DNA of 64,000 nt from Dictyostelium discoideum (Eukaryota). The translations under genes were made by a program, and so were the position numbers. The stretch spans positions 640,001 through 704,000 of the forward strand of contig CM000155.2 in assembly GCA_000004695.1 (NCBI GenBank), in the 5' to 3' direction. Shown in pieces: positions 8,952 to 25,912 of this stretch. Under the pieces are notes generated by a model. The model was not told the origin of the DNA, made no database searches, and saw only the letters and a list, made by a program, of their open reading frames with translations. The first letter of the stretch is position 1, and the number at the start of each line of letters is the position of its first letter.

Positions 8952-11900
8952 TTAAACATTAGAAAGTTTTAAACTAAACCAAATAAAAGAATCAAGAGAT
9001 AATCTAAAAATTTGTTGTTTAATTGAATCAGTTCTTTCATAATAAGCTAAAAGGTAATCACCATGAAGTGTTATATTTAAAGCGGCGATTGATGAAGGTG
9101 GAATATCACCAGTACAAACGAATTGATTCCATTCAAAAGTTTCTAAATTTAGGATATGAATTTGATTGAGTAATCTTGCTTTATTGAACCAACCACCAAT
9201 AACAATCAAAGAATTATTCCAAAGTATACTACTATGACCAACCATTGGTAATGGTGGAATACCTTTACATTCGATTTCAACCCAACCATTTTTATTTGTA
9301 GTTGGAACTGTGAATTTAAATCTATGGAAAGAATCTTCAATTGAAGAGATAACAAAAGTTAATGTATCATTGAAAACTGTAACCGATGGACCATCAGGGA
9401 AATCGATTTTATTTTTCAATTCTTTCTTCAAGAGGAATGGTAAATTAATTTCCTTTGGAGCATTCTCACCAATGAATACTTGATAAATCTTTTTAGATTG
9501 GATTTTAATGATTTCACGATCGTCAGGTGTTTGATTTGGTAAAGATTTGAAAGTTTTAATAGCTTCATAAAACATTAAATTCTCTTCATTGAATTCTGAT
9601 TGCATGTGAGTATAAAATGCTTTATAGGTGGTTGACTGTTTATTATTCAATACAACCATTAATTTATCCTCGAATAGCATGCTTGAAAGATTTAATGCAA
9701 ACACTTTTGAATGTGGTTTCGATGAATTATTCCAACCACCGAAATGGATGATTTTATCTTGATAAATGATTGAACCACCAGATGGTAATGGATGGTCAGA
9801 GTAAATGTTATTATCCGACGCTAAACTCTTATAACTATGTTCCTTTGATTCAATCTCTTTCTTTATCGTATAGAGTTGTGATATTATTTTAGATGGTGAT
9901 GGACGATTCAATGGTTCACCTGACCAACAATCTTTAATTAAATCTGCAAATGATGGTAAACAATCTAATGGAATCGATGGACGTTGACCACTAATAACAA
10001 TATTTGAGAATCTATCATGATCTTGGAATGCTATTGATCTAGTTAACAATTCATATAAAATAATACCAAATGAATAGACATCACTATTTTCATGATAATT
10101 TAATTTTTGTAATACTTCTGGTGAATGATATGATTTTGGTGTTGTACTAGTTGGAAATAGTGACGGTAAAAATGATGATTGTGAAAAATCTATAATTTTT
10201 GCATTTACAAATGGTTCAATTTCAAGACCATTGCCACTTGACTGATGGTCATTTGATTTCTCTAAAATTATACCAGAACTTGTTAAATTTGTTAATAGGA
10301 AAGGTGGAGAATGTGAATTTAATTTATCCATTGCACGAGCTATATCCAATGCAATCTTTAATTTAATATTCCATGGAATTTCAGGATGCTTTTGTCTGTC
10401 TTGAATATACTCTGATAGGGTTGTGCTACCTTTACTACCGAATGTCGGATTCTCTGTTATGATTGCGATTGGGTTCATTGAAATACCAATTATCGATAAA
10501 ACATTTGAATGACGGAAATTATATAATGACAATGCTTCATGTCTAAAACTTGATAGAATACGAGCACAATTATTTTGGAAATCTGCGCCCAACAATGGAG
10601 CATTGAATACTTTAATATTTACAAACTGTTTACCATACATTCCCATCATTGATTGTGTTGATGTACCATTTTCATTTTGATTAGAATGATCTGGTAAAAC
10701 TTCAATCTCTCTATAATCAATTTCTTTAATAAAATGACAAATTGAAAATTGATCTAATAATAGTGATCGAATTGGTACCAAAAATGAATCATCTCTATAA
10801 ATTTCAACTTTTCTTTCTTTTTCTTTTTCTTTATCTTTATCTTTTTCTTTTTCTTTTTCTTTTTCTTTATTTTGTTTTGCTAATTCTTTCAAATCTTTTT
10901 TAGATAAACTATTATTATTATCATTATTATTTGATTGAATTAGGTTTTTAGAATCTTTTCTTGAAATCTTTGGATTTGATCTAGATGAAGCAATTGGTGA
11001 ACTTGTATCATTTGAACTATTATTGTTATTTGGTTTATATTGACAATAAATACCTAATTCACCTTTAAATATTTGTGCTTCACATTCTTCCAATTTAAAT
11101 AAATGAGGTGTAACGATTTTCTTTTCAATACAATGACTACATGGTATAAAAGTTTTAAATGATACTTTATACCATTTTGAAACTAAAGATTCGAAAATAC
11201 TATAAACTTGACTTGATAAGGTTGATGGTCTAATAAATCTTATTGTAATTTCAATTGTATTACTATCATGATCAACATTTACTAAAATACGTTCTTCACG
11301 GAATTGTTGTTGTAATGTGTTGTTGGAAGATCCTGATGCTAATGATTGGAGAGTTGTTGCTGATGTTGTTGTTGTTGAGTTTGCTGTTGATGATGATGAT
11401 GATGATGATGTTGTTGACATTGATGCTATCTCTGGTACTAAAATTGCTAAATCCTTCCAACATTTATAAAGATGAGCATGTTGCATTAGTCTACTTAATA
11501 ATCTACCAAATAAACCATTTGGAATTACATCTAATGAGAATCTTCTTGAAAATTGATGAATTTCAGGTGACTCTGGAAAAGCTTCCCAAATACCTGGTAA
11601 ATCAATGATTGGTATCATTGATGAAATATTATTCAAATTTAATGCATTACTTAATGAAGATGATGAAGATGATGAATTTGAACTAATTGAACAATTACCA
11701 TTGATTGATAGTTGTGGTGGTGGTGCTAATAATGATGAAACCAATGCCCAACCAACACGAGCATTAAATGAACTTGAACGACCATTTCTAACTTTTTGAT
11801 TTGATGTAAAACTTGATAAACTACTTGTATTATTTAAATTAACACCAAAATAAGAATTACTGCGATTTGCTTCATGAATACTCATTGATCTTGATCCTGA

Positions 11901-14900
11901 TCTACCACGACCTACATTATTGCCATTGCTATTATTATTATTATTATTATTAACTTCTAATGAATAAATATTAATTGCTAAATCATTACTTTCTAATAAT
12001 GATAAAAATAATGAAAAGAATCTTTCAGGTACATAATATTTTGAATTTGTACCCCAAACATAACGTAAAACTCTATGTGGTAAAATACCAGTGATTGTTG
12101 AATCATGTGATGCATCATTTGCTTCTTCAGCACTAACACTAACATTGAATGGTAAATTTTGAGGATTAAAACAAACCAATGAAGCTATTGCCTTTGCTAT
12201 CCAAATTGGATTCAAAGCAATCATTTCAGTTTTTTGAGGTGTTGAACCTGGTTCCATACGAATGAATTGTTCAAACAATGCAATTGAACCCAATGAATTG
12301 AATAACGATTTCAATTGAGTGAAATGTGGTTCATTATGTAACTCCATTGTACGTGCCATTTGTTGTAGTGTCTTTTTGGTAACCAATGGTGGTGACATTA
12401 AATTTGATTCCTCTTTAAGATAATCCTCTAAAAACATAAAGGAGGCAGGATAGGTTTGTTTTAGTATTGGATTCTTTGCAATCATTTGTTTAATATCTCT
12501 TCTAAGTTTTCTAATTCCATCAGCATCTGATTTCAATGTTGAAACTGCATGAAAAACCAAATTAAGTGTTGGAAATAATTGTTTATATTTTAAAGATAAA
12601 CAATCGAATACTTTATCAACTTGTTTCTTACTATTGGATGAAATCTCATCCAAATGAGTACCAATGATAATGATTGTTGCTTTTTTATCATAATTATTAA
12701 TACCATGTAAATAAGATGTTATCTTTTGTTCATTTGATTTACTTGAACCAAATTTAGATAAATTGAAACAAACTGTATAAATTATATTTGGTACAAAGAA
12801 AACATGACTAATATCATTTTGCATACCTTCAAATTCCCAAAGATGAATTGTAATAGTTTTCTTTTTCTTACCATCTGGACCATCAACATTAATTGGACAT
12901 TGCCAATCTTGAATATCTAAAATATTTGTTTTACTATTACCTGAATTATTTGAATTATTACTGTTTAAATTATTTAATGATGGTAAATTACTTGAAGAAG
13001 ATGAAAAACTTGATTTTGGTAATTTTTTTAAACATTTTATTAAATTTGATTTACCAGTTGATTTATCACCCAACATAATGATTCTAGTACGATAACAAGG
13101 TACGTTGGTTCTCATGGTTTCAGAAAAGAATGAGAAAATACCTTCTTTACCTTTTTGAATATATTTCTCTGGTATATTATCTTTTAATGGTTTATTACCA
13201 GTTAATTCTAATGAATTTAATTTCTTTAAAGCTACAATACCAGGTGGTAAACGTGAGATATTATTATTTGTTAATCTAAGTTCAATGAGTGATTGCATTC
13301 TATGAATTGCAGAACTAATCGATTGTAATTGATTATTATCTAAATAAAGTTTCTTTAAATTTGTTAATAATAAAAGTTGGGGTGGTAATGACTGGATTTG
13401 GTTTCCATTTAAATTGAGTTCAGTCAATGATGTTAATTTTTGGATATCAGAAGTTAAATGAGAAATTTGATTATCTGCCAATGTCAATACTTGTAATTCC
13501 ACTAAATTAATTATACCCTCTGGTATGGAGGTTAAATGATTCTTTCTTAAATCCAGTGACCTTAATTTAGTGGATGTGCATATCTTTGGAATACCATTAT
13601 CGTCCAAATCGTTATTACTAACACGTAACACCTCCAATGTCGGGATTTGAAAGATATCAATTGGTAATTTAGTGAGATAGTTATTTGAAATATTTAAAGT
13701 TTTCAATTTTAACCAAGTATACAATGGTGGTAATACCACCAATCTATTACTACTCAATGTCACATTCTCAAGATTACTTAATCTCGTTCCCAAGAAATCT
13801 GCCATCTCTGATGAAATCTCGGTTAAATTATTCTCTTCTATACAAATGGTTCTCAATGATGTTAATCTTGCAAGATCACCTGGTAATAATTTAAATTTAT
13901 TTCTATTCAAATTTAATTCTTGTAAATCTTTAAGTTGTTTAATTTCGTTTGGTAAACTTTCCAACTCTAATGAAAACATATCCAACTTTTGTGGTATAAT
14001 TCTATTCAATTGTGATATTGATTTAGTTACTGAATTTATATATGCATATATTAATTTACATGTTGAAGGTGACTGAAATGAAAATGTTATAACTGTTTTA
14101 GTATCACTACTACAATAAACTGTAAAATTAGGTAATACTTTTAATGATGATGATAGTGATGTTGACGATATTGATGGTGTTGATGATGACGATGATGATG
14201 CTGATGACGAATTTGATATTGATGATGATGACGATGATGATGATGATTGTGGTGGTGTATATAATACAATTTTTAAAATACTGCTAAATAAAATAGCTAA
14301 ATCAGGTTCACCATGATCAATATTAACCTTTGGTCTCCAAACAATTTGTTTATGAAATAACCATAAATTACCAACTGATGATTGATGTTGACTCTTTTGT
14401 GTTGATGTTAATACCTCTTCAATATAAAGAATTTGAGCATCATCTGTATTCATACGTTCTTCAGGTGATTGGAATAAAATATCAGCTTGTTGAATAAACA
14501 TTGTTACAATATCTTTAATTGTCTTTAAATGTGATTCACTAATCTCTTTACTTTGAGCAATTGTTCCAATAGTTGGTCTTAATATAAATTTATGAAATCT
14601 TTCAACTAATAATTCCAATGTAACATCATTAAAATTTGTATATACCATAATATCTTTTAAATATTTCATTAATCTACATAAAATTGATTTATTTGGATTA
14701 TTCATTTTCCTAATCATTAAATGTAATAAAGTTTCTATAAAAAAATAAAAATAAATTTATTAATATATTATTAATATTATTATTATTAAATTGTTTAATA
14801 TATTGATGATATATTAATATTTACCAGTTTGATAATAATTTAAAAGAGTTTCATAAAATTCAACACTTATAATTGGTTCAGGTAAACGATTAAAAAATTC

Positions 14901-15984
14901 AATTAAAATTTCTGAAACAACATGAACATTACATTTTTTAAGTGATACTTCAATACCTTGATCATATTGATTACAAATATTTTCAACTTCTAATTTAATT
15001 GATTTTTGTGATAAATATTGATGTGGTGATGTATTTGTATTTGTTGTTGTTGTAGTAGTAGGCTGTGGTTGTTGTTGTTGTTGTAGTTGATTTATAATAT
15101 TTGGTGATGAATTACCAGATGAACCAGATGAAGAAGATGATGATAATGATGATGATAAATTTGGAGATGTTGGTACACTAATTGTTGGTATGGTTGTATT
15201 TGCAGCAGTTGAGATTGGACTAATACTTGAGGCTAAATTACTAGTACTTGTATTATAATCACCATAAAACAATCTATTTGTTGATAATGCACTACTTGAT
15301 TCTAAGATTGTAAAGATTGAATTTAAAATTGAGGGTATTTGATTACCACTTTCGTTTGGGTAACGTAATATTACACGTAATGGTATACCGAATATACCTT
15401 CGAATGGTACAACTTGAACACTGTTTAAAGAGTTTGGTGATGTGTGACCACTAATTGTACCACTACCACTTGATATAGAGGAGGAGGTTGATTGCTGGTA
15501 TGGTGATGATGGTGTTTTATATTGTTCTTTACTTTGACTAACTAATTTACTCATTCTCTCTTTTGAAAGACTCATTTTACCTAAAAATTGCATAACTTTT
15601 TCACCGGCACCTGCTTGTTTAACACCTGATGATGACGATGATACACCTGTTGAATTCATTAATGGTGACCTATTTTGACTGCTAACTGCAGATGCTGATG
15701 TTTTCTTATTATGATTACCTCTTGGATAACCCATAGTTGGTGATGATGATAATGGCATTTGTGAATCAGAGTTTAGTCCTGTTAAATGTGGTGGTTGTGG
15801 TGATGTTGATTGAATAATTGGCGATGTAACACCACTTGATTGATTACTACTGCTACCATGAGTATTACTATTATTATTATTATTACCACCATTATCAATA
15901 CCACTACCTGACATTGATAATGAACCACTGGTACCATTTGAAGGTGAATGATTACCATTCATTGGATGTTGTGGTTGTTTATTG

Positions 15985-16015
<31 letters not shown>

Positions 16016-16982
16016 AACCTGCTACTGAATTATGAAAATTACCATGGGTTGAATGTTTATTTAGTGCTGGCATTGTTGGTGAACTTAAATAATTATTATT
16101 ATTATTATTGTTGTTGTTGTTGTTACCATTACGTTGTTGTTGTTGTAATTGTGATAAAATATTTAAAGTTTGAGTTGAAGCTGTACCAGATGGTGAAGTA
16201 CTATTATAGATACCACTACCACTATTGTTTAAAGAGATTGAAGGTGAAACATCACCAGCAGCACTTGTACTACTAATTTTAATTGGTGATAATGGTGGTT
16301 TATTACCACCAGAATTCCTTTTACCATTATTATTTCTAGAGAGTGTTGGTGATGGTGATATAAATAATGGTACCTCTGGTAATGATGAAATTAAATCTTT
16401 TTTTTGCGCTTTAATATTTTCTTTCTCTTCTGTTGTTAATGGTAATTCTTCATTAATTAATGTTGCAAAGGTTTCATTATCTTTATCTTTATCTTGTTTG
16501 TTGTTATTATTAGTTTGTAAATTTGGTGGTGTTGATGTTGGTGATGTTGGTACTGGCGGAATTGGTATATTGCTTGCCAATAATAATGATTTCAATTGTT
16601 GTGCATTAAATGTATTACCACCTGATAATCTAGTACCACTTGGTGATGTTATATATGTTGGTGAGGCTGATATTGTTGGTGATGATGTAGTAGTTGTTGC
16701 AACTGGTGACATTGCAGTTGTAGTTGTTGTTGTTGTTGTTGTTGTTATAATTGTTGGTGGAGGTGGTGATGATGATGTATTTATTGTTTGTGTTGGTAGT
16801 GGTGGTGGTGGTGATAATGTATCATTCTCTAATAAATTTTGTTGTGGTGAGCTTGGTGGAATTGATTTATTATCATCTGCACCATTTACACTATAATTTA
16901 ATGATGCACTACCAATTGATGATGTTATAATAGAATCTGGTGAAACTTGAATGATTTCATCATCATCCAATAAACCTGACAT
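8952..16982 (-). CDS. Roco-family protein: RhoGAP - LRR - Roc GTPase - COR - (pseudo)kinase - Kelch/RGS/Kelch; exons 16982..14825 and 14734..8952
   Basis: The 3-prime ORF has LRRs (LKDLQELNLNRNKFKLLP...) and a Roc P-loop (IIMLGDKSTGKSNLIKCL). The kinase domain has VNIK, DFS, SPE and DVYSFGIILYEL. An RGS domain (FEDKLMVVL...EENLMFYEAIKTF...IYQVFIGENAP) and Kelch repeats (HFGGWNN, VIGGWFN) follow. The 5-prime ORF (14814..16982) has a RhoGAP-like end (CNVHVVSEILIEFFNRLPEPIISVEFY). It terminates at a GTAAAT donor (ACTG|GTAAAT), followed by a 90 bp AT-rich intron (14735-14824) and a TTTTATAG acceptor. Reading continues in frame E-TLLHL-MIRKMNNPNK, the start of ORF 8952..14717. Total about 2640 aa. 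Confidence 0.8.
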
Positions 16983-17504
16983 TTTTTCTTCTTTTTCTTC
17001 TTTTTTTTTCTGATTAATTATTAATTATAAATAAATAAATAAAATAAATAAATAAAATAAATAAATAAATAACCTATAAGTTTAAATAAATATTTATATA
17101 TTAATATATTATATTTATATAATAAAATTATATTATATTATATTATATTGGTTTTTATTATTAAAATATAAAATAAATATTTCTAAAATAAAAAAAAAAC
17201 AAAAAAAAACAACAATAATAATATTAAAAAAGGAGGAATAAATTAATATATAATTTTACAAATTGTGTGTGTGTGTTTAGAATGAATAAATTAACAATCC
17301 AAATAAAAAAGTGTGTAGAAAGGAGATTTTTTTTTTTTTTTTTTTCTAAACAAAAAAAAAAAAAAAATTATTTAGTAATAAATTAATGACAAACAATAAA
17401 TTGTAAGTTATCAATTAATTTAATTACTATTATTATTACTATTATTGTTATTATTATTATAATTAAATAAACATAAAATAAAAAAAGTGTAATTTGTTTT
17501 ATTT

Positions 17505-17551
<47 letters not shown>

Positions 17552-18233
17552 TAAAAATAGTTTTTAAAAAAAAAAAGACATACACTTTAATACTGATGAT
17601 TAACAAAAAATTAAAAAATAAAAATAAAAAAAAAAAAGGAAGGAGGTGTCCGGTTACCTTTTATTATTATTATTTTTTTTTTTTTTTTTTTTTTTTTCCT
17701 TTTTTTCAATTTAATTTGTTTTAAAATATAATATCTTTTGTGAAAGTGGTGTGGATTGATTAATGGTGTGTGATAAAAATAAATTTGAAAAAAAAAAAAA
17801 AGTTTTTTAAATTCACCCCCAAAAATATAAAATAATAATCACAATGTAATTGGGGGTGAAAAAAAAAAATTAAAAAAATAAAATAAAATAAAAATAAAAA
17901 ATAAAGAGATCTAGATTGATTTAAATATAGTTTTAAAAGAAGAAAAAAAGAAAAGAATAGTATTTGTTTTCCTTGTGTCCTTTTTAAACAAATTTCCAAT
18001 ACCTACTTATAAGAATAAATATGAAAGTCTAATTTTGAAAATTTTTGGGGGGAATGTAAATGTACAATAAATAAAATTAATTGAAAATAAATAATAAATT
18101 GAAAAAAAAAAAAAAAAAAAAAAAAAATTTTTGTGAAGGTTTATTTGGGGAAGGATTTTTGTTATTGTTACTGTTATTACTATTATTATTATTATAATTA
18201 ATATTAAGTTAAATTCGGGATTCTAAAAAAATA

Positions 18234-18288
<55 letters not shown>

Positions 18289-18466
18289 TATTTTAATGGA
18301 AAAAAAAGGGGGGCCCCCTGCAAAAAAAGTTGTTTTTTAAAATGAAAAAAAGGGGATGAGGATTATTGGTTTATTAAAAAGGATTTCCCATTGGTTTCAC
18401 ACCGAAAAAATTTTTTTTTTTTTCAACAAACAACAAAATATAATCAAATGATATGAAAAAAAATAT

Positions 18467-18497
<31 letters not shown>

Positions 18498-19590
18498 AAA
18501 AAAAGGTTTTAAAAAAAAAAAAAAAAAAAAAAATCTTTTTTTTTTATAGTTTTTTTTTCCAAACGGTTAAAAATCATTTTTTAAATATTTTTAAATGTTG
18601 TCATTCGATTCAAATCTAAGCAGGCCTTTTTTAAAAAAAAAAAATTTAAAAAAAAAATTAAAAAAAATAAAATAATGAAATGAAAAAAATTAAAAGAAAT
18701 TGAAAAAAAAAATAAAAAAATAAAATAAGATGAACCACAAGATTTGATCAAATCTAACTTTTATTATTATTATTATTATTTTTAAAAATAATAATAATAA
18801 TAAAATAATTAAACAAATAATAAAAAAATAAAAAAAAAAAAAAAAATAAAAAAATAATTATTTCACATTACTGTAGATTTTAAAATTATAATTTACGACA
18901 ATGTAAACAATTCACGTTTTTTTTTTTTTTTTTTTTTTTTTTTCAACACAGCAAATTTGCACATTTTCTAATTTTTTTTTTTCTTTTTAAAATTTTATTA
19001 TGAACTACAACCATTTTTTTTTTTTTTTTATTTTAAAAAAGGGGAATAAAATAACCAAAAAAAAAAAAAAAAGTTAATTATTTTTTAGAAAAAAAAAATA
19101 AAAAGTAAAAAAATATAAAAAAAAATAATAAAAAATAAAAAATAATAATTAAAAATAATTATTACTTACACAGTTATAATAGGCATATTAAATAAGTTTT
19201 AGCCTTAATTTTTTTTTTTTTTATCTTTTATCCATCCCACATTTTAGATTAATTTTATTTGTTTTAATCCTGTAACAATAAATCCAGTGAGGGGAGATGG
19301 GTGAGGGGGTCATGATAGCTTTATTTTCTTAATTTAGAATAAATAAAGATCTATTTTCTATTATTTTTTATTATTTTTTTTTTAATAATTATTTTTTTTT
19401 TTTTTTGTTTTATTATTATTTTCTTTTGGTTTTTTTTTTTTTTCAATTGGTTTTTTTTTTTTTTTTTTTTTTTTTTTCCTAATAATTTTTTATTAAAAGG
19501 GTTAATAAACAAAAAAGGAATTACTTACTAATTATCATATGCATAATATTTTTTCCATTATTTTTGGATTTGGAAAAAAATATTTTTTCC

Positions 19591-19623
<33 letters not shown>

Positions 19624-19717
19624 TTTCACCCCTACCCAAATAAAATAATTTATTCTTTATTATTAATTATTAAAATTTTAAAAAAATAAAAAAAAATTGG
19701 AATTTAAATTTTAAAAG

Positions 19718-20655
19718 ATTATTTAAAAAAGATGTTAATGGTCCATGGTCTTTGCCAATTATTGGTGGTATTTATTTAATTAATGATAATCCAAACAGAG
19801 CATTAACAAAATTATCAAAAAAATATGGTGGAATTTATAAAATTTGGCTTGGTGAATCATTTTCAATGGTAAAAATTATTATAATAATTAAAAATAATAA
19901 TAATTTATTAATTTTAAATATTTTTTAAAAAAGGTTGTTTCAGATCCAGAGATTGTAAATGAAATTTGGGTTAAACAACATGATAATTTTATTAATCGTC
20001 CAAAAAATATTACACATAAAATGTTTTCAAGTAATTATAGGTCACTCAATTTTGGTGATAATCCAAATTGGAAATTTAATAGATCAATGGCTTCAAGTCA
20101 CTTTACAAAAACAAAATTATTATCATCAAAAGTAACATCTGTTGTTGAAAAAAAATTAAATAAATTAATTGAAACAATGGAATATCATTCAATAAATAAA
20201 TTACCAGTAAGTATTTATTATTATATATATAAATAAATAATATTTATTTATAATAATAAAATTTAAATTATAGTTTGATTCATATGTTGGATTTAGTGAG
20301 TATTCATTAAATATAATTTTAAATATGCTTGTTTCAATGGATATTGATGAATGTGAAAATTCAACACAAAATGTAATTTATTCAATTAATGAAATTTTTA
20401 AAATGCTTTCGACAAATAGTCCACAATATAGCTTTCCATATTTAAAATTCTTCTTTAAAAAAGATTTAAATAATTTTAAATTCCATTTAGATAAAATTAA
20501 ATCTTTCATTCATTCAATTTATTTAAAACAATTAGAATCATATGATCCTTCAAATCCAAGAAATATTTTAGATTCATTCATTAGTGATCTCCAATCAAAT
20601 GATATTGATATTTTATTGCAAATTTGTATAGATATAGTGGTTGCAGGAACTGGTA

Positions 20656-20745
<90 letters not shown>

Positions 20746-21121
20746 TATTTTAAATTATCCAATTATACATAAATTAATTAATTAGTTTTTTATTTATTAT
20801 TATTATTTAATATAGATACTGTTGCAAACTTATTACAATGGTTTGTTTTATTTTGTATAAATTATCCAGAAATTCAAGAAAAATTATATAATGAAATTAT
20901 TGAAGTTGTTGGAAAAGATTGCAAGGTTTTAAAATATGAACATATTTCAAAAATGCCTTATTTATATGGATGCTTTAGAGAATCATTAAGAATTCGTCCT
21001 GTCACACCATTATCATTACCTCGTGTCGCAAAGTGTGATACATATATTAAAGATGATATTTTTATTCCAAAGGGTGTAAGTTAATTTTCAATTTCCATTA
21101 TTTATTTATTTTATTTATTAA

Positions 21122-21168
<47 letters not shown>

Positions 21169-21533
21169 CAACAATAATTCAAAATATATTTGGAATGGGA
21201 AATGATGAAAAATATATAAGCGAACCAAATAAATTTAAACCAGAGAGATGGGTTGAATATATTAAAAATAAAAAAGTTAATAAAAATGGAAATGAAAATT
21301 CTGTAAATAAATATTTTAATGATTTAGATAAAATTTCAATCCCATTTGGTGTAGGAAAAAGACAATGTTTGTCACCTGCAATGGCAGAACAAGAATCTTT
21401 ACTTTCAATCGCTACTGTGGTATTAAACTACAAACTAAAATCAAATGGACAAAAAAAATTAAATGAAAAAGAAGTTTATTCAATCACAATTAAGCCACAA
21501 CCTTTTAAATTATTTTTAGAAAAAAGAGTATAG
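19718..21533 (+). CDS. Cytochrome P450, multi-exon; first Met-containing exon unresolved; exons ?..19868, 19934..20206, 20274..20652, 20816..21075 and 21168..21533
   Basis: Conserved P450 blocks are present: N-terminal GPWSLPIIGG, I-helix AGTDTV (spanning the exon C/D junction), ESLRIRP (ExxR), and heme-binding FGVGKRQCLSPAMAE. Donors are ATG|GTAAAA, CCA|GTAAGT, ACTG|GTAATA and GGT|GTAAGT. Acceptors are AAAG, TTATAG, ATATAG and AAAAAG, and all phases are consistent. An in-frame TAA at 19671 with no ATG after it shows that the start exon lies upstream and is not found. Confidence 0.8.
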
Positions 21534-22610
21534 AATAAAATTGATATAAATAGATAAATTAACAGATAAAGATATTGTGCGTTTTAAAAAAAATAAAAAA
21601 ATTTACCCAATTAAAAAAAAAAAAAAAAACGCTCAATTTTTTTTAAGTTTTATATATTTGTTTTAAAATTTTAAAACAAATATATAAAATTTAAAAAAAA
21701 AATTTTTTTATTTATTTATTATCATCTTTGAGTTTGTTAGAAAAAGAGTATAAAATAAATTTATAAACAGATAAAGATATTTAGTTTAAACAATAAGTTT
21801 TTTTTTTAATTGAGCACATTAAAGCTCTTTTTATTATTATTATTATTTTTTTTTTTTTTTTTTTTTTTTTTATTGAATAATATCGAGTTATAGATCACAG
21901 TAAGAGTTTGTTTACGTGTGTTGGGGCTTGGTTATTTGATGCAATTAGATTGGGATCTTTCTTATAAAAGATGGCAAAATACTACAATGGAAGCATAGAT
22001 TTCCATTCGACTCGACTAATTATTAGGGTCAATATCTTTTTTCTTGTACACAAGATCATTTCAAATCTATTTTAATAACACTAAGAATTATTAAAATAGT
22101 TTGAAAGAGAAAATTTTCTAATCGGAAAAATAAACTTGAAATCCTTGAATTAATAAGTGGATGATGATGGTGGTGATGATGGTGGTGATGATGGTGATGG
22201 GGTAGTGTTCTAAATTTAAAGTACTAAATTCATCTTGGGGATATGTTAATGCGGTAAGGCAATACTAAGCAAGAATAAATGTCTTCTAGTTGAATTGAAT
22301 TATTGACAATTCTCATCTAGATGAATGGACATTGATATGGTACTTTTGGATAGAGCACTTAATACTAATTCAAGTTGTAAGTGATTTCTTTTTTTTTTTT
22401 TCTTTTGAAAACCTTCAAAGGATAGAGTCTAATAAAAGTTGAGTTTTCGTGGAATTCTGTGGCGACCAAATAAAACCGCTGGTTGTAGTCTCGTTATAAC
22501 AAAATCAACAGAGGTTTTACCAAATGGATGACGTATAGATATTCTATATTCATGGCGTGTGGTTGAATTATGAGTTGGTTGGGGTTTGTTGCAATTTTTG
22601 AACACACAAG

Positions 22611-23459: not shown

Positions 23460-25912
<2,453 letters not shown>

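Follow-up and report, generated by a model that had tools for sequence, protein, structure and literature searches.

The stretch of DNA analyzed here, referred to as the window, comprises 64,000 nucleotides of the Dictyostelium discoideum genome (assembly GCA_000004695.1, contig CM000155.2, positions 640,001 to 704,000 of the forward strand) and has an overall G+C content of 23%. On its minus strand, between positions 8952 and 16982, the list of open reading frames (ORFs) contains two long entries, 14814..16982 with 722 amino acids and 8952..14717 with 1921 amino acids, lengths that at such a base composition are far beyond chance. The best explanation is that both are parts of the annotated two-exon gene roco10, in which removal of a spliceosomal intron of 90 nt yields one protein of the Roco family with 2646 amino acids, and to this reading we assign a probability of about 95%. 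As evidenced by a protein search and a direct string comparison, the joined translation matches a 2646-residue protein of D. discoideum AX4 with 100% identity and 100% coverage (XP_630003.1 / EAL61591.1 / UniProt Q6XHA6, UniRef100_Q6XHA6). The UniRef name of this match is "Probable inactive serine/threonine-protein kinase roco10", and the same accession is entered for roco10 in a review table (PMC7888446). All residues and the exon structure are the same, with no difference from the known entry: the locus is the D. discoideum Roco10 gene itself.

A preliminary description of the window, made from the letters alone, had proposed that the two long ORFs belong to one Roco gene and had suggested a comparison with annotated members of the family as a check. 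Its splice reproduces the curated two-exon model exactly, and the comparison returned roco10 with 2646 of 2646 residues identical, so that the finding is correct in observation and in interpretation, albeit for a gene that was already known. Gene, intron, protein and domain mixture have figured in the D. discoideum annotation and in publications on Roco proteins for some twenty years and do not constitute a discovery; the exact match to the curated model does make the splice reasoning from raw sequence useful as a calibration.

Exon 1 (14825..16982, minus strand, 2158 nt) starts with the ATG at 16982 and encodes residues 1-719; its last nucleotide is the first base of codon 720 (phase 1). Exon 2 (8952..14734, minus strand, 5783 nt) supplies the remaining two bases to give G+AA, or Glu720, continues through residues 721-2646 and closes with the stop codon at 8952-8954. 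The summed length of the two exons is divisible by 3, and the only stop in the joined frame is the terminal one. Between them lies the sole intron of the gene (14735..14824, minus strand), which is 90 nt long, consists of 94.4% A+T and reads GTAAAT...TTTTATAG, with the donor GT at 14824-14823 and, behind a T-rich tract, a TATAG acceptor whose AG occupies 14736-14735. On the minus strand the boundaries are CAA ACT G^GTAAATATTAA...TTTTTTTATAG^AA ACT TTA TTA CAT TTA ATG ATT AGG AAA ATG, where carets mark the exon borders, and the intron ends as read at the upstream and downstream borders are GTAAATATTAATAT...TTTATTTTTTTATAG. Introns of Dictyostelium are typically short, very rich in A+T and of the GT-AG type, and donor, acceptor and frame are all in agreement with this type. 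The TAA stop of the upstream ORF (14816-14814) lies within the intron, 8 nt past the donor. This bears out the preliminary description, which had noted the coincidence of that stop with a GTAAAT donor, and the proposed 90-bp AT-rich intron does restore the frame into the ORF beginning MIRKMNNPNK; the predicted length of about 2640 residues was close to the actual one.

The outer limits of the gene at 8952 and 16982 are supported by the collapse of the G+C content at these positions and by the conservation of both termini. Values of 28-36% prevail in both exons, but of 10-16% just outside the two positions and within the intron, with a fall from 34% to 10% immediately upstream of exon 1. The N-terminus MSGLLDDDEIIQ is common to the orthologs, and the C-terminus WFSLKLSNV aligns with the ortholog C-termini; the conserved terminal peptides are MSxLLDDD and WFxLKL. 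A missing 5' exon was considered and rejected, as the orthologs begin with the same MSxLLDD peptide and the G+C content collapses upstream of 16982.

Further support for the splice comes from an alignment of six sequences, those of D. discoideum, D. purpureum, Tieghemostelium lacteum and three other dictyostelids, to which all ortholog comparisons in this analysis refer. The five orthologs share 56-66% identity and the same domain order; the D. purpureum protein is named 'roco10, ROCO family protein' and that of T. lacteum 'Kelch repeat-containing protein'. Throughout the alignment the junction peptide LPEPII.(V/I)EFYET.LNYYQT^ETLLHLMIR (junction marked by the caret) is invariant and has no insertion at the junction, and the Pfam RhoGAP match, residues 663-772, crosses the junction at residues 719/720. 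D. purpureum has an intron of 78 nt in this codon, in identical phase, ACA G^GTAAGT...TTTAAAG^AA. T. lacteum has no intron there, and its DNA codes the peptide QTET contiguously as CAA ACA GAG ACA. Comparative evidence for a predicted junction peptide can hardly be stronger than its contiguous coding in an intron-less ortholog.

These data also bear on the possibility that the locus contains two genes, an upstream one ending with the TAA at 14814 after 722 residues and a downstream one starting with the ATG at 14717 and encoding a Roco protein of 1921 residues. Each ORF is indeed open by itself and the downstream one begins with an ATG, but this arrangement would split a single RhoGAP domain and would leave the invariance of the junction peptide in six species, and its uninterrupted coding in T. 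lacteum, unaccounted for. The gap of 96 nt from stop to ATG is too small to hold a terminator and a promoter, TLLHL, the five in-frame residues preceding the ATG, is conserved as coding sequence, and the curated annotation joins both ORFs. We therefore give two separate genes practically no weight. More conceivable, though still very unlikely, is that retention of the intron produces an additional, truncated isoform of 722 residues that would consist of the N-terminus and two thirds of the RhoGAP-like domain and end in YYQTGKY. Short A+T-rich introns are sometimes retained, and here retention would lead to an immediate in-frame stop; the truncated RhoGAP-like fold, however, would probably be unstable, and there is no support for such a product.

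With roco10 as a single two-exon gene, the intron differences among its orthologs become a matter of gene-structure evolution. Beyond the absence of the RhoGAP intron from T. lacteum, D. purpureum and T. lacteum both carry an intron of ~60-70 nt where the leucine-rich repeats begin (LRR; at ~4682-4742 in L001 and 4389-4458 in L002) that is not found in D. discoideum, where the equivalent position in the window is ~13917-13925 (residues 991-993). A second, in-frame intron at residue ~992 of the D. discoideum gene was accordingly tried as a candidate and rejected, the protein aligning without an insertion. These differences between T. lacteum, D. purpureum and D. discoideum mean that introns of this orthologous gene have been gained or lost. 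All orthologs resemble the D. discoideum protein in the features described below, namely LTN and DFS at the pseudokinase signature positions, no arginine finger and an RGS domain within the Kelch region, but differ from it in low-complexity insertions that are of other length or absent, and in varying intron positions. One ortholog, the EukProt model P0004, extends by ~220 amino acids beyond the conserved Roco10 C-terminus and shows a CAP-domain match (PF00188) in this extension, which is probably a gene-model fusion with a downstream gene.

The domain order of the joined protein is a low-complexity N-terminus, a RhoGAP-like domain, a possible PH-like domain, LRR, Roc, COR, pseudokinase, one Kelch blade, RGS and two further Kelch blades. 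A Pfam search of the joined protein confirmed each domain, and the order, of the RhoGAP-LRR-Roc-COR-kinase-Kelch-RGS-Kelch arrangement put forward in the preliminary description, and its statement that Rho-GAP, RGS and Roc modules are combined in one polypeptide is true of Roco10, although this has been on record since the first descriptions of the Roco family. In several modules the first account nevertheless needs amendment. A RhoGAP-like domain with a large low-complexity insertion is present as stated and matches the RhoGAP profile, but it straddles the intron rather than ending the upstream exon, and the lack of a catalytic arginine had been missed. The kinase domain exists but is a pseudokinase, with HRD replaced by LTN and DFG by DFS, and while RGS was rightly seen to be inserted among Kelch repeats, the fact that a single blade precedes it had escaped notice.

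The RhoGAP-like domain (14469..15404, minus strand, residues 527-808) is interrupted in the protein by a low-complexity insertion and in the DNA by the intron. It begins around residue 527 with PFEGIFGIPLRVIL...IPSILNSIF...LSTNRLFYGD, followed by an insertion of ~80 residues (576-655, window 15018..15257) that three of the six species share, and resumes at about residue 656; the match to PF00620, the one crossing the splice junction, scores 44.6 bits (cutoff 24.5). A profile built from the six sequences matched 22 RhoGAP-type chains in the PDB at E < 0.01, the best being the RhoGAP-like domain of OCRL-1 (2qv2, 3qis; E = 2e-11), ahead of p190, ARHGAP12, DLC1 and p50RhoGAP. The register of the arginine finger was taken from the alignment with RalBP1, in which both FGIPL and the segment past the finger loop align. 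At the arginine position of the GI[FY]R motif, D. discoideum has a tyrosine (STNRLFYGD, residues 567-575) and the orthologs have Y, Y, S, M and S, the corresponding finger segments being LFY, LYY, LFS, IFM and LFS; no conserved arginine was found at or beside this position among the six aligned sequences. The domain thus appears to be a pseudo-GAP (GAP, GTPase-activating protein). The RhoGAP-like domain of OCRL-1/INPP5B (2qv2, 3qis), the best solved match, likewise has no catalytic arginine and is inactive. The context differs, as the domain follows an inositol 5-phosphatase and an ASH domain in OCRL but is part of a Roco protein in Roco10 and there carries the insertion of 80 residues after the finger loop.

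The Roc domain (12468..13100, minus strand, residues ~1265-1475) contains a P-loop, GDKSTGKS at 1275-1282, followed by a low-complexity insertion, a G3 motif WEFEG (1352-1356) and a G4 motif GTHLD (1411-1415). Pfam detects Roc at residues 1315-1415 with E = 2.2e-5. It is directly followed by COR (11028..12449, minus strand), with COR-A at residues 1482-1644 and COR-B at 1863-1954, again with low-complexity insertions, and COR-B reaches 39.5 bits against a cutoff of 27. The best PDB match of this region is the Roc-COR unit of LRRK2, contiguous over residues 1312-1580 with E = 1e-11 and with WDFAG and GTHLD aligned. Roco10 has the succession of Roc and COR that defines the Roco family, as well as LRR before Roc and a kinase of the tyrosine kinase-like (TKL) type after COR. 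This LRR-Roc-COR-kinase core is common to LRRK2, LRRK1 and Roco4, as is a C-terminal region of the beta-propeller type. Roco10 differs from all of them in a kinase devoid of the catalytic residues and in the additional N-terminal RhoGAP-like domain, and its propeller-type region is of the Kelch kind, apparently with only three blades and with an RGS insert, as opposed to the full seven-bladed WD40 propeller of LRRK2, LRRK1 and Roco4.

In the pseudokinase (9858..10715, minus strand, residues ~2060-2345; PK_Tyr_Ser-Thr, 86.1 bits, residues 2113-2341) the best structural match and alignment partner is Roco4 (4f1m, 4yzm). The catalytic loop HRDLRSPN of Roco4 is replaced by LTNLTSSG (residues 2200-2207) and DFG by DFS (2235-2237), whereas K2094 of the VAIK motif and E2119 of the alpha-C helix are kept, and the signature residues of the kinase are invariant in all six orthologs. 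Judged by sequence, the Asp of HRD, the loop Asn and DFG are all missing, which predicts an inactive kinase. The top-scoring PDB chain for this domain is Roco4 4f1m, which itself reads DFS; a DFS-reading chain scores best because Roco10 carries DFS naturally (window 10182-10190, minus strand, residues 2235-2237). We take this serine to be the same Gly-to-Ser change as in LRRK2 G2019S of Parkinson's disease; it is natural in Roco10, while in LRRK2 G2019S and in Roco4 G1179S it is made by mutation. In a kinome study, roco10 is the only Roco kinase marked as catalytically inert (PMC1420674).

One might still suppose that the kinase and the RhoGAP-like domain are active in a non-canonical manner, through other residues or with an arginine provided in trans or by R570. 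The conservation of K2094, E2119 and D2235 in all orthologs would be in line with this, some former pseudokinases have proved active (PMC1420674), and R570 of D. discoideum lies three residues before the finger position. Both the catalytic Asp and the Mg-binding loop Asn are, however, replaced in six of six orthologs, and four of the five other species have K, K, Q or H in place of R570, so that we consider such activity unlikely and retain the assignment as predicted pseudokinase and pseudo-GAP.

The RGS domain (9315..9641, minus strand, residues 2418-2526) matches PF00615 at residues 2418-2525 with 44.9 bits (cutoff 23.9), and its closest PDB matches are the R4-type proteins RGS18, RGS8, RGS2 and RGS4, with which it shares the fold signature and the motifs SEFxEENL and APKEINL. 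SEFNEENL and KEINLP, the latter containing N2483, align with SEFSEENI and KEVNLD of RGS18 and are invariant in the orthologs, and the Asn of KEINLP is presumably the equivalent of N128 in RGS4. Profile and predicted G-alpha contact residues of an RGS domain are both present. The domain differs from R4 RGS proteins in not being free-standing, as it is inserted within a Kelch blade at the Roco C-terminus. The first blade (9678..9785, minus strand, residues ~2370-2405, with the sequence IIHFGGW) precedes RGS and is recognized by Kelch_3 with E = 0.021 (residues 2384-2408), and two more blades (8964..9302, minus strand, residues 2531-2643) match PF24681, Kelch_KLHDC2_KLHL20_DRC7, with 65.3 bits (cutoff 50).

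An AlphaFold2 model of residues 2350-2646, built from the six-sequence alignment, has a mean predicted local distance difference test (pLDDT) score of 63.5 and a predicted TM-score (pTM) of 0.55, with pLDDT values of 70-94 in the last two Kelch blades. Its twelve strands are arranged as three beta-strands, the six helices of RGS, one strand that would complete the first blade and two four-stranded blades. The model therefore places the RGS insertion inside the first Kelch blade, between its strands 3 and 4. A Foldseek search against the PDB returned as top matches the six-bladed Kelch propellers KLHDC2 and LZTR1 with probability 1.0 but a TM-score of only ~0.43, and the alignments span both sides of RGS. 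In this moderate-confidence model there appear to be three Kelch blades, too few to close a propeller, usually of six blades, in one chain. Since Roco proteins dimerise through COR and there are only three blades per chain, one may speculate that in a Roco10 dimer two half-propellers combine to a six-bladed inter-subunit Kelch propeller bearing two RGS domains; given an inert kinase and a RhoGAP-like domain that lacks the finger, the only enzymatic output of the protein would then be a dimerisation-dependent RGS activity on G-alpha. We regard this arrangement as unlikely, and no description of an inter-subunit Kelch propeller or of dimerisation-dependent RGS activity in Roco10 was found in the literature searched.

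The remaining parts of the protein are less easily assigned. The N-terminal region (15408..16982, minus strand, residues 1-525) is of low complexity, rich in Ser, Thr, Asn and Pro, and poorly conserved apart from the motif MQFLGKMSLSKERMSKLV, and Pfam has no match in the N-terminal 529 residues. That motif (residues 464-481, window 15591-15644, minus strand) hardly varies among the six orthologs and is itself without a Pfam match; it may serve as a short linear motif for binding or form an amphipathic helix. The segment between RhoGAP and LRR (13998..14450, minus strand, residues 815-965) shows strong conservation, GNLWLFHKQIVWRPKVN...LPNFTVYCSSDTKTVITF; the D. discoideum sequence contains a poly-Ser insertion here. 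All six orthologs show sub-cutoff matches to PH_TFIIH here (best E = 4.6e-4), and single members to PH_22 and PH_FAN, so that a PH-like domain seems plausible. A profile of residues 815-972 gave no match among PDB sequences up to E = 10, and an AlphaFold2 model of residues 522-972, covering the RhoGAP-like and the putative PH-like domain and based on the same alignment, had a mean pLDDT of 36 and was unusable. The LRR (13188..13985, minus strand, residues ~970-1235) match LRR_8, LRR_14 and LRR_4 with 86.4, 66.5 and 65.3 bits, respectively, the matches falling at residues ~1000-1230.

Upstream of roco10, from 17000 to 21800, an unusually long section of the window, ~4.8 kb, has a G+C content of 10-22% and contains no ORF of at least 150 amino acids. 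Within this region, short plus-strand ORFs at 20325-20753 and 21195-21533 resemble pieces of a cytochrome P450, the second with the heme-binding signature PFGVGKRQCLSPAMAE, and belong to a gene with several exons or else to a pseudogene. Farther on, a minus-strand ORF at 23993-24253 with an RWP-RK-type motif, KLGISESMLCKRFKECTRRKWPYR, adjoins a poly-Gln-rich ORF of 532 residues at 24314-25912 on the same strand, and both probably belong, as exons, to a single gene. No tRNA genes were found in the window.

The arrangement of domains suggests how Roco10 may work. Roc-COR acts as a GTP-dependent dimeric switch in other Roco proteins (PMC6337361), and with an intact P-loop and an LRRK2-like THLD in G4 it would probably be a GTP-dependent switch and dimerisation unit here as well. 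The kinase domain is probably a conformational or scaffolding element, ordinary phosphotransfer being excluded as an output by the loss of both the catalytic Asp and the catalytic-loop Asn. As it has no arginine finger, the RhoGAP-like domain is more likely to bind GTPases of the Rac/Rho family than to inactivate them, in the manner of the OCRL domain. Of all modules, RGS alone would be likely to have remained active as a GAP, directed towards heterotrimeric G-alpha, because it has kept the G-alpha contact residues of the R4 type. Roco10 is thus most likely a GTP-regulated scaffold through which the cytoskeleton is connected to G-alpha signalling and to GTPases of the Rho family. Two independent roco10 insertion mutants showed reduced motility compared to the wild type in a growth-phase assay (PMC8386026), a phenotype consistent with involvement in the signalling of G proteins and Rho to the cytoskeleton. 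Note that Roco10 is not named in the main text of a cytoskeleton study by stable isotope labelling by amino acids in cell culture (SILAC; PMC3971484), which does name Roco7 and Roco9.

Several points weigh against this reading of gene and protein. The evidence for the splice is comparative and derived from protein domains and from the existing annotation, and we infer the scaffold role, with RGS as the active module, from sequence. Roc (25.1 bits, cutoff 27) and COR-A (24.4 bits, cutoff 35.3) both score below the Pfam gathering cutoffs, and in six of six orthologs G3 reads ExxG instead of DxxG, so that the GTPase behavior may be atypical. The assignment of the finger position derives from a partial profile alignment and from motif inspection and is to be taken as provisional. 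The literature covered, which did not include the primary paper characterizing the Roco family, yielded no biochemical work on Roco10.

For a gene this well annotated, what the analysis may add is confined to mildly new points, a RhoGAP domain that resembles that of OCRL and lacks the arginine finger, a Kelch region of three blades interrupted by RGS, and a possible PH-like domain, all of them predicted features. The first two in particular, a RhoGAP domain apparently without its finger and a Kelch region with RGS set into its first blade, may be of interest to those who use Dictyostelium Roco proteins as models for LRRK2.

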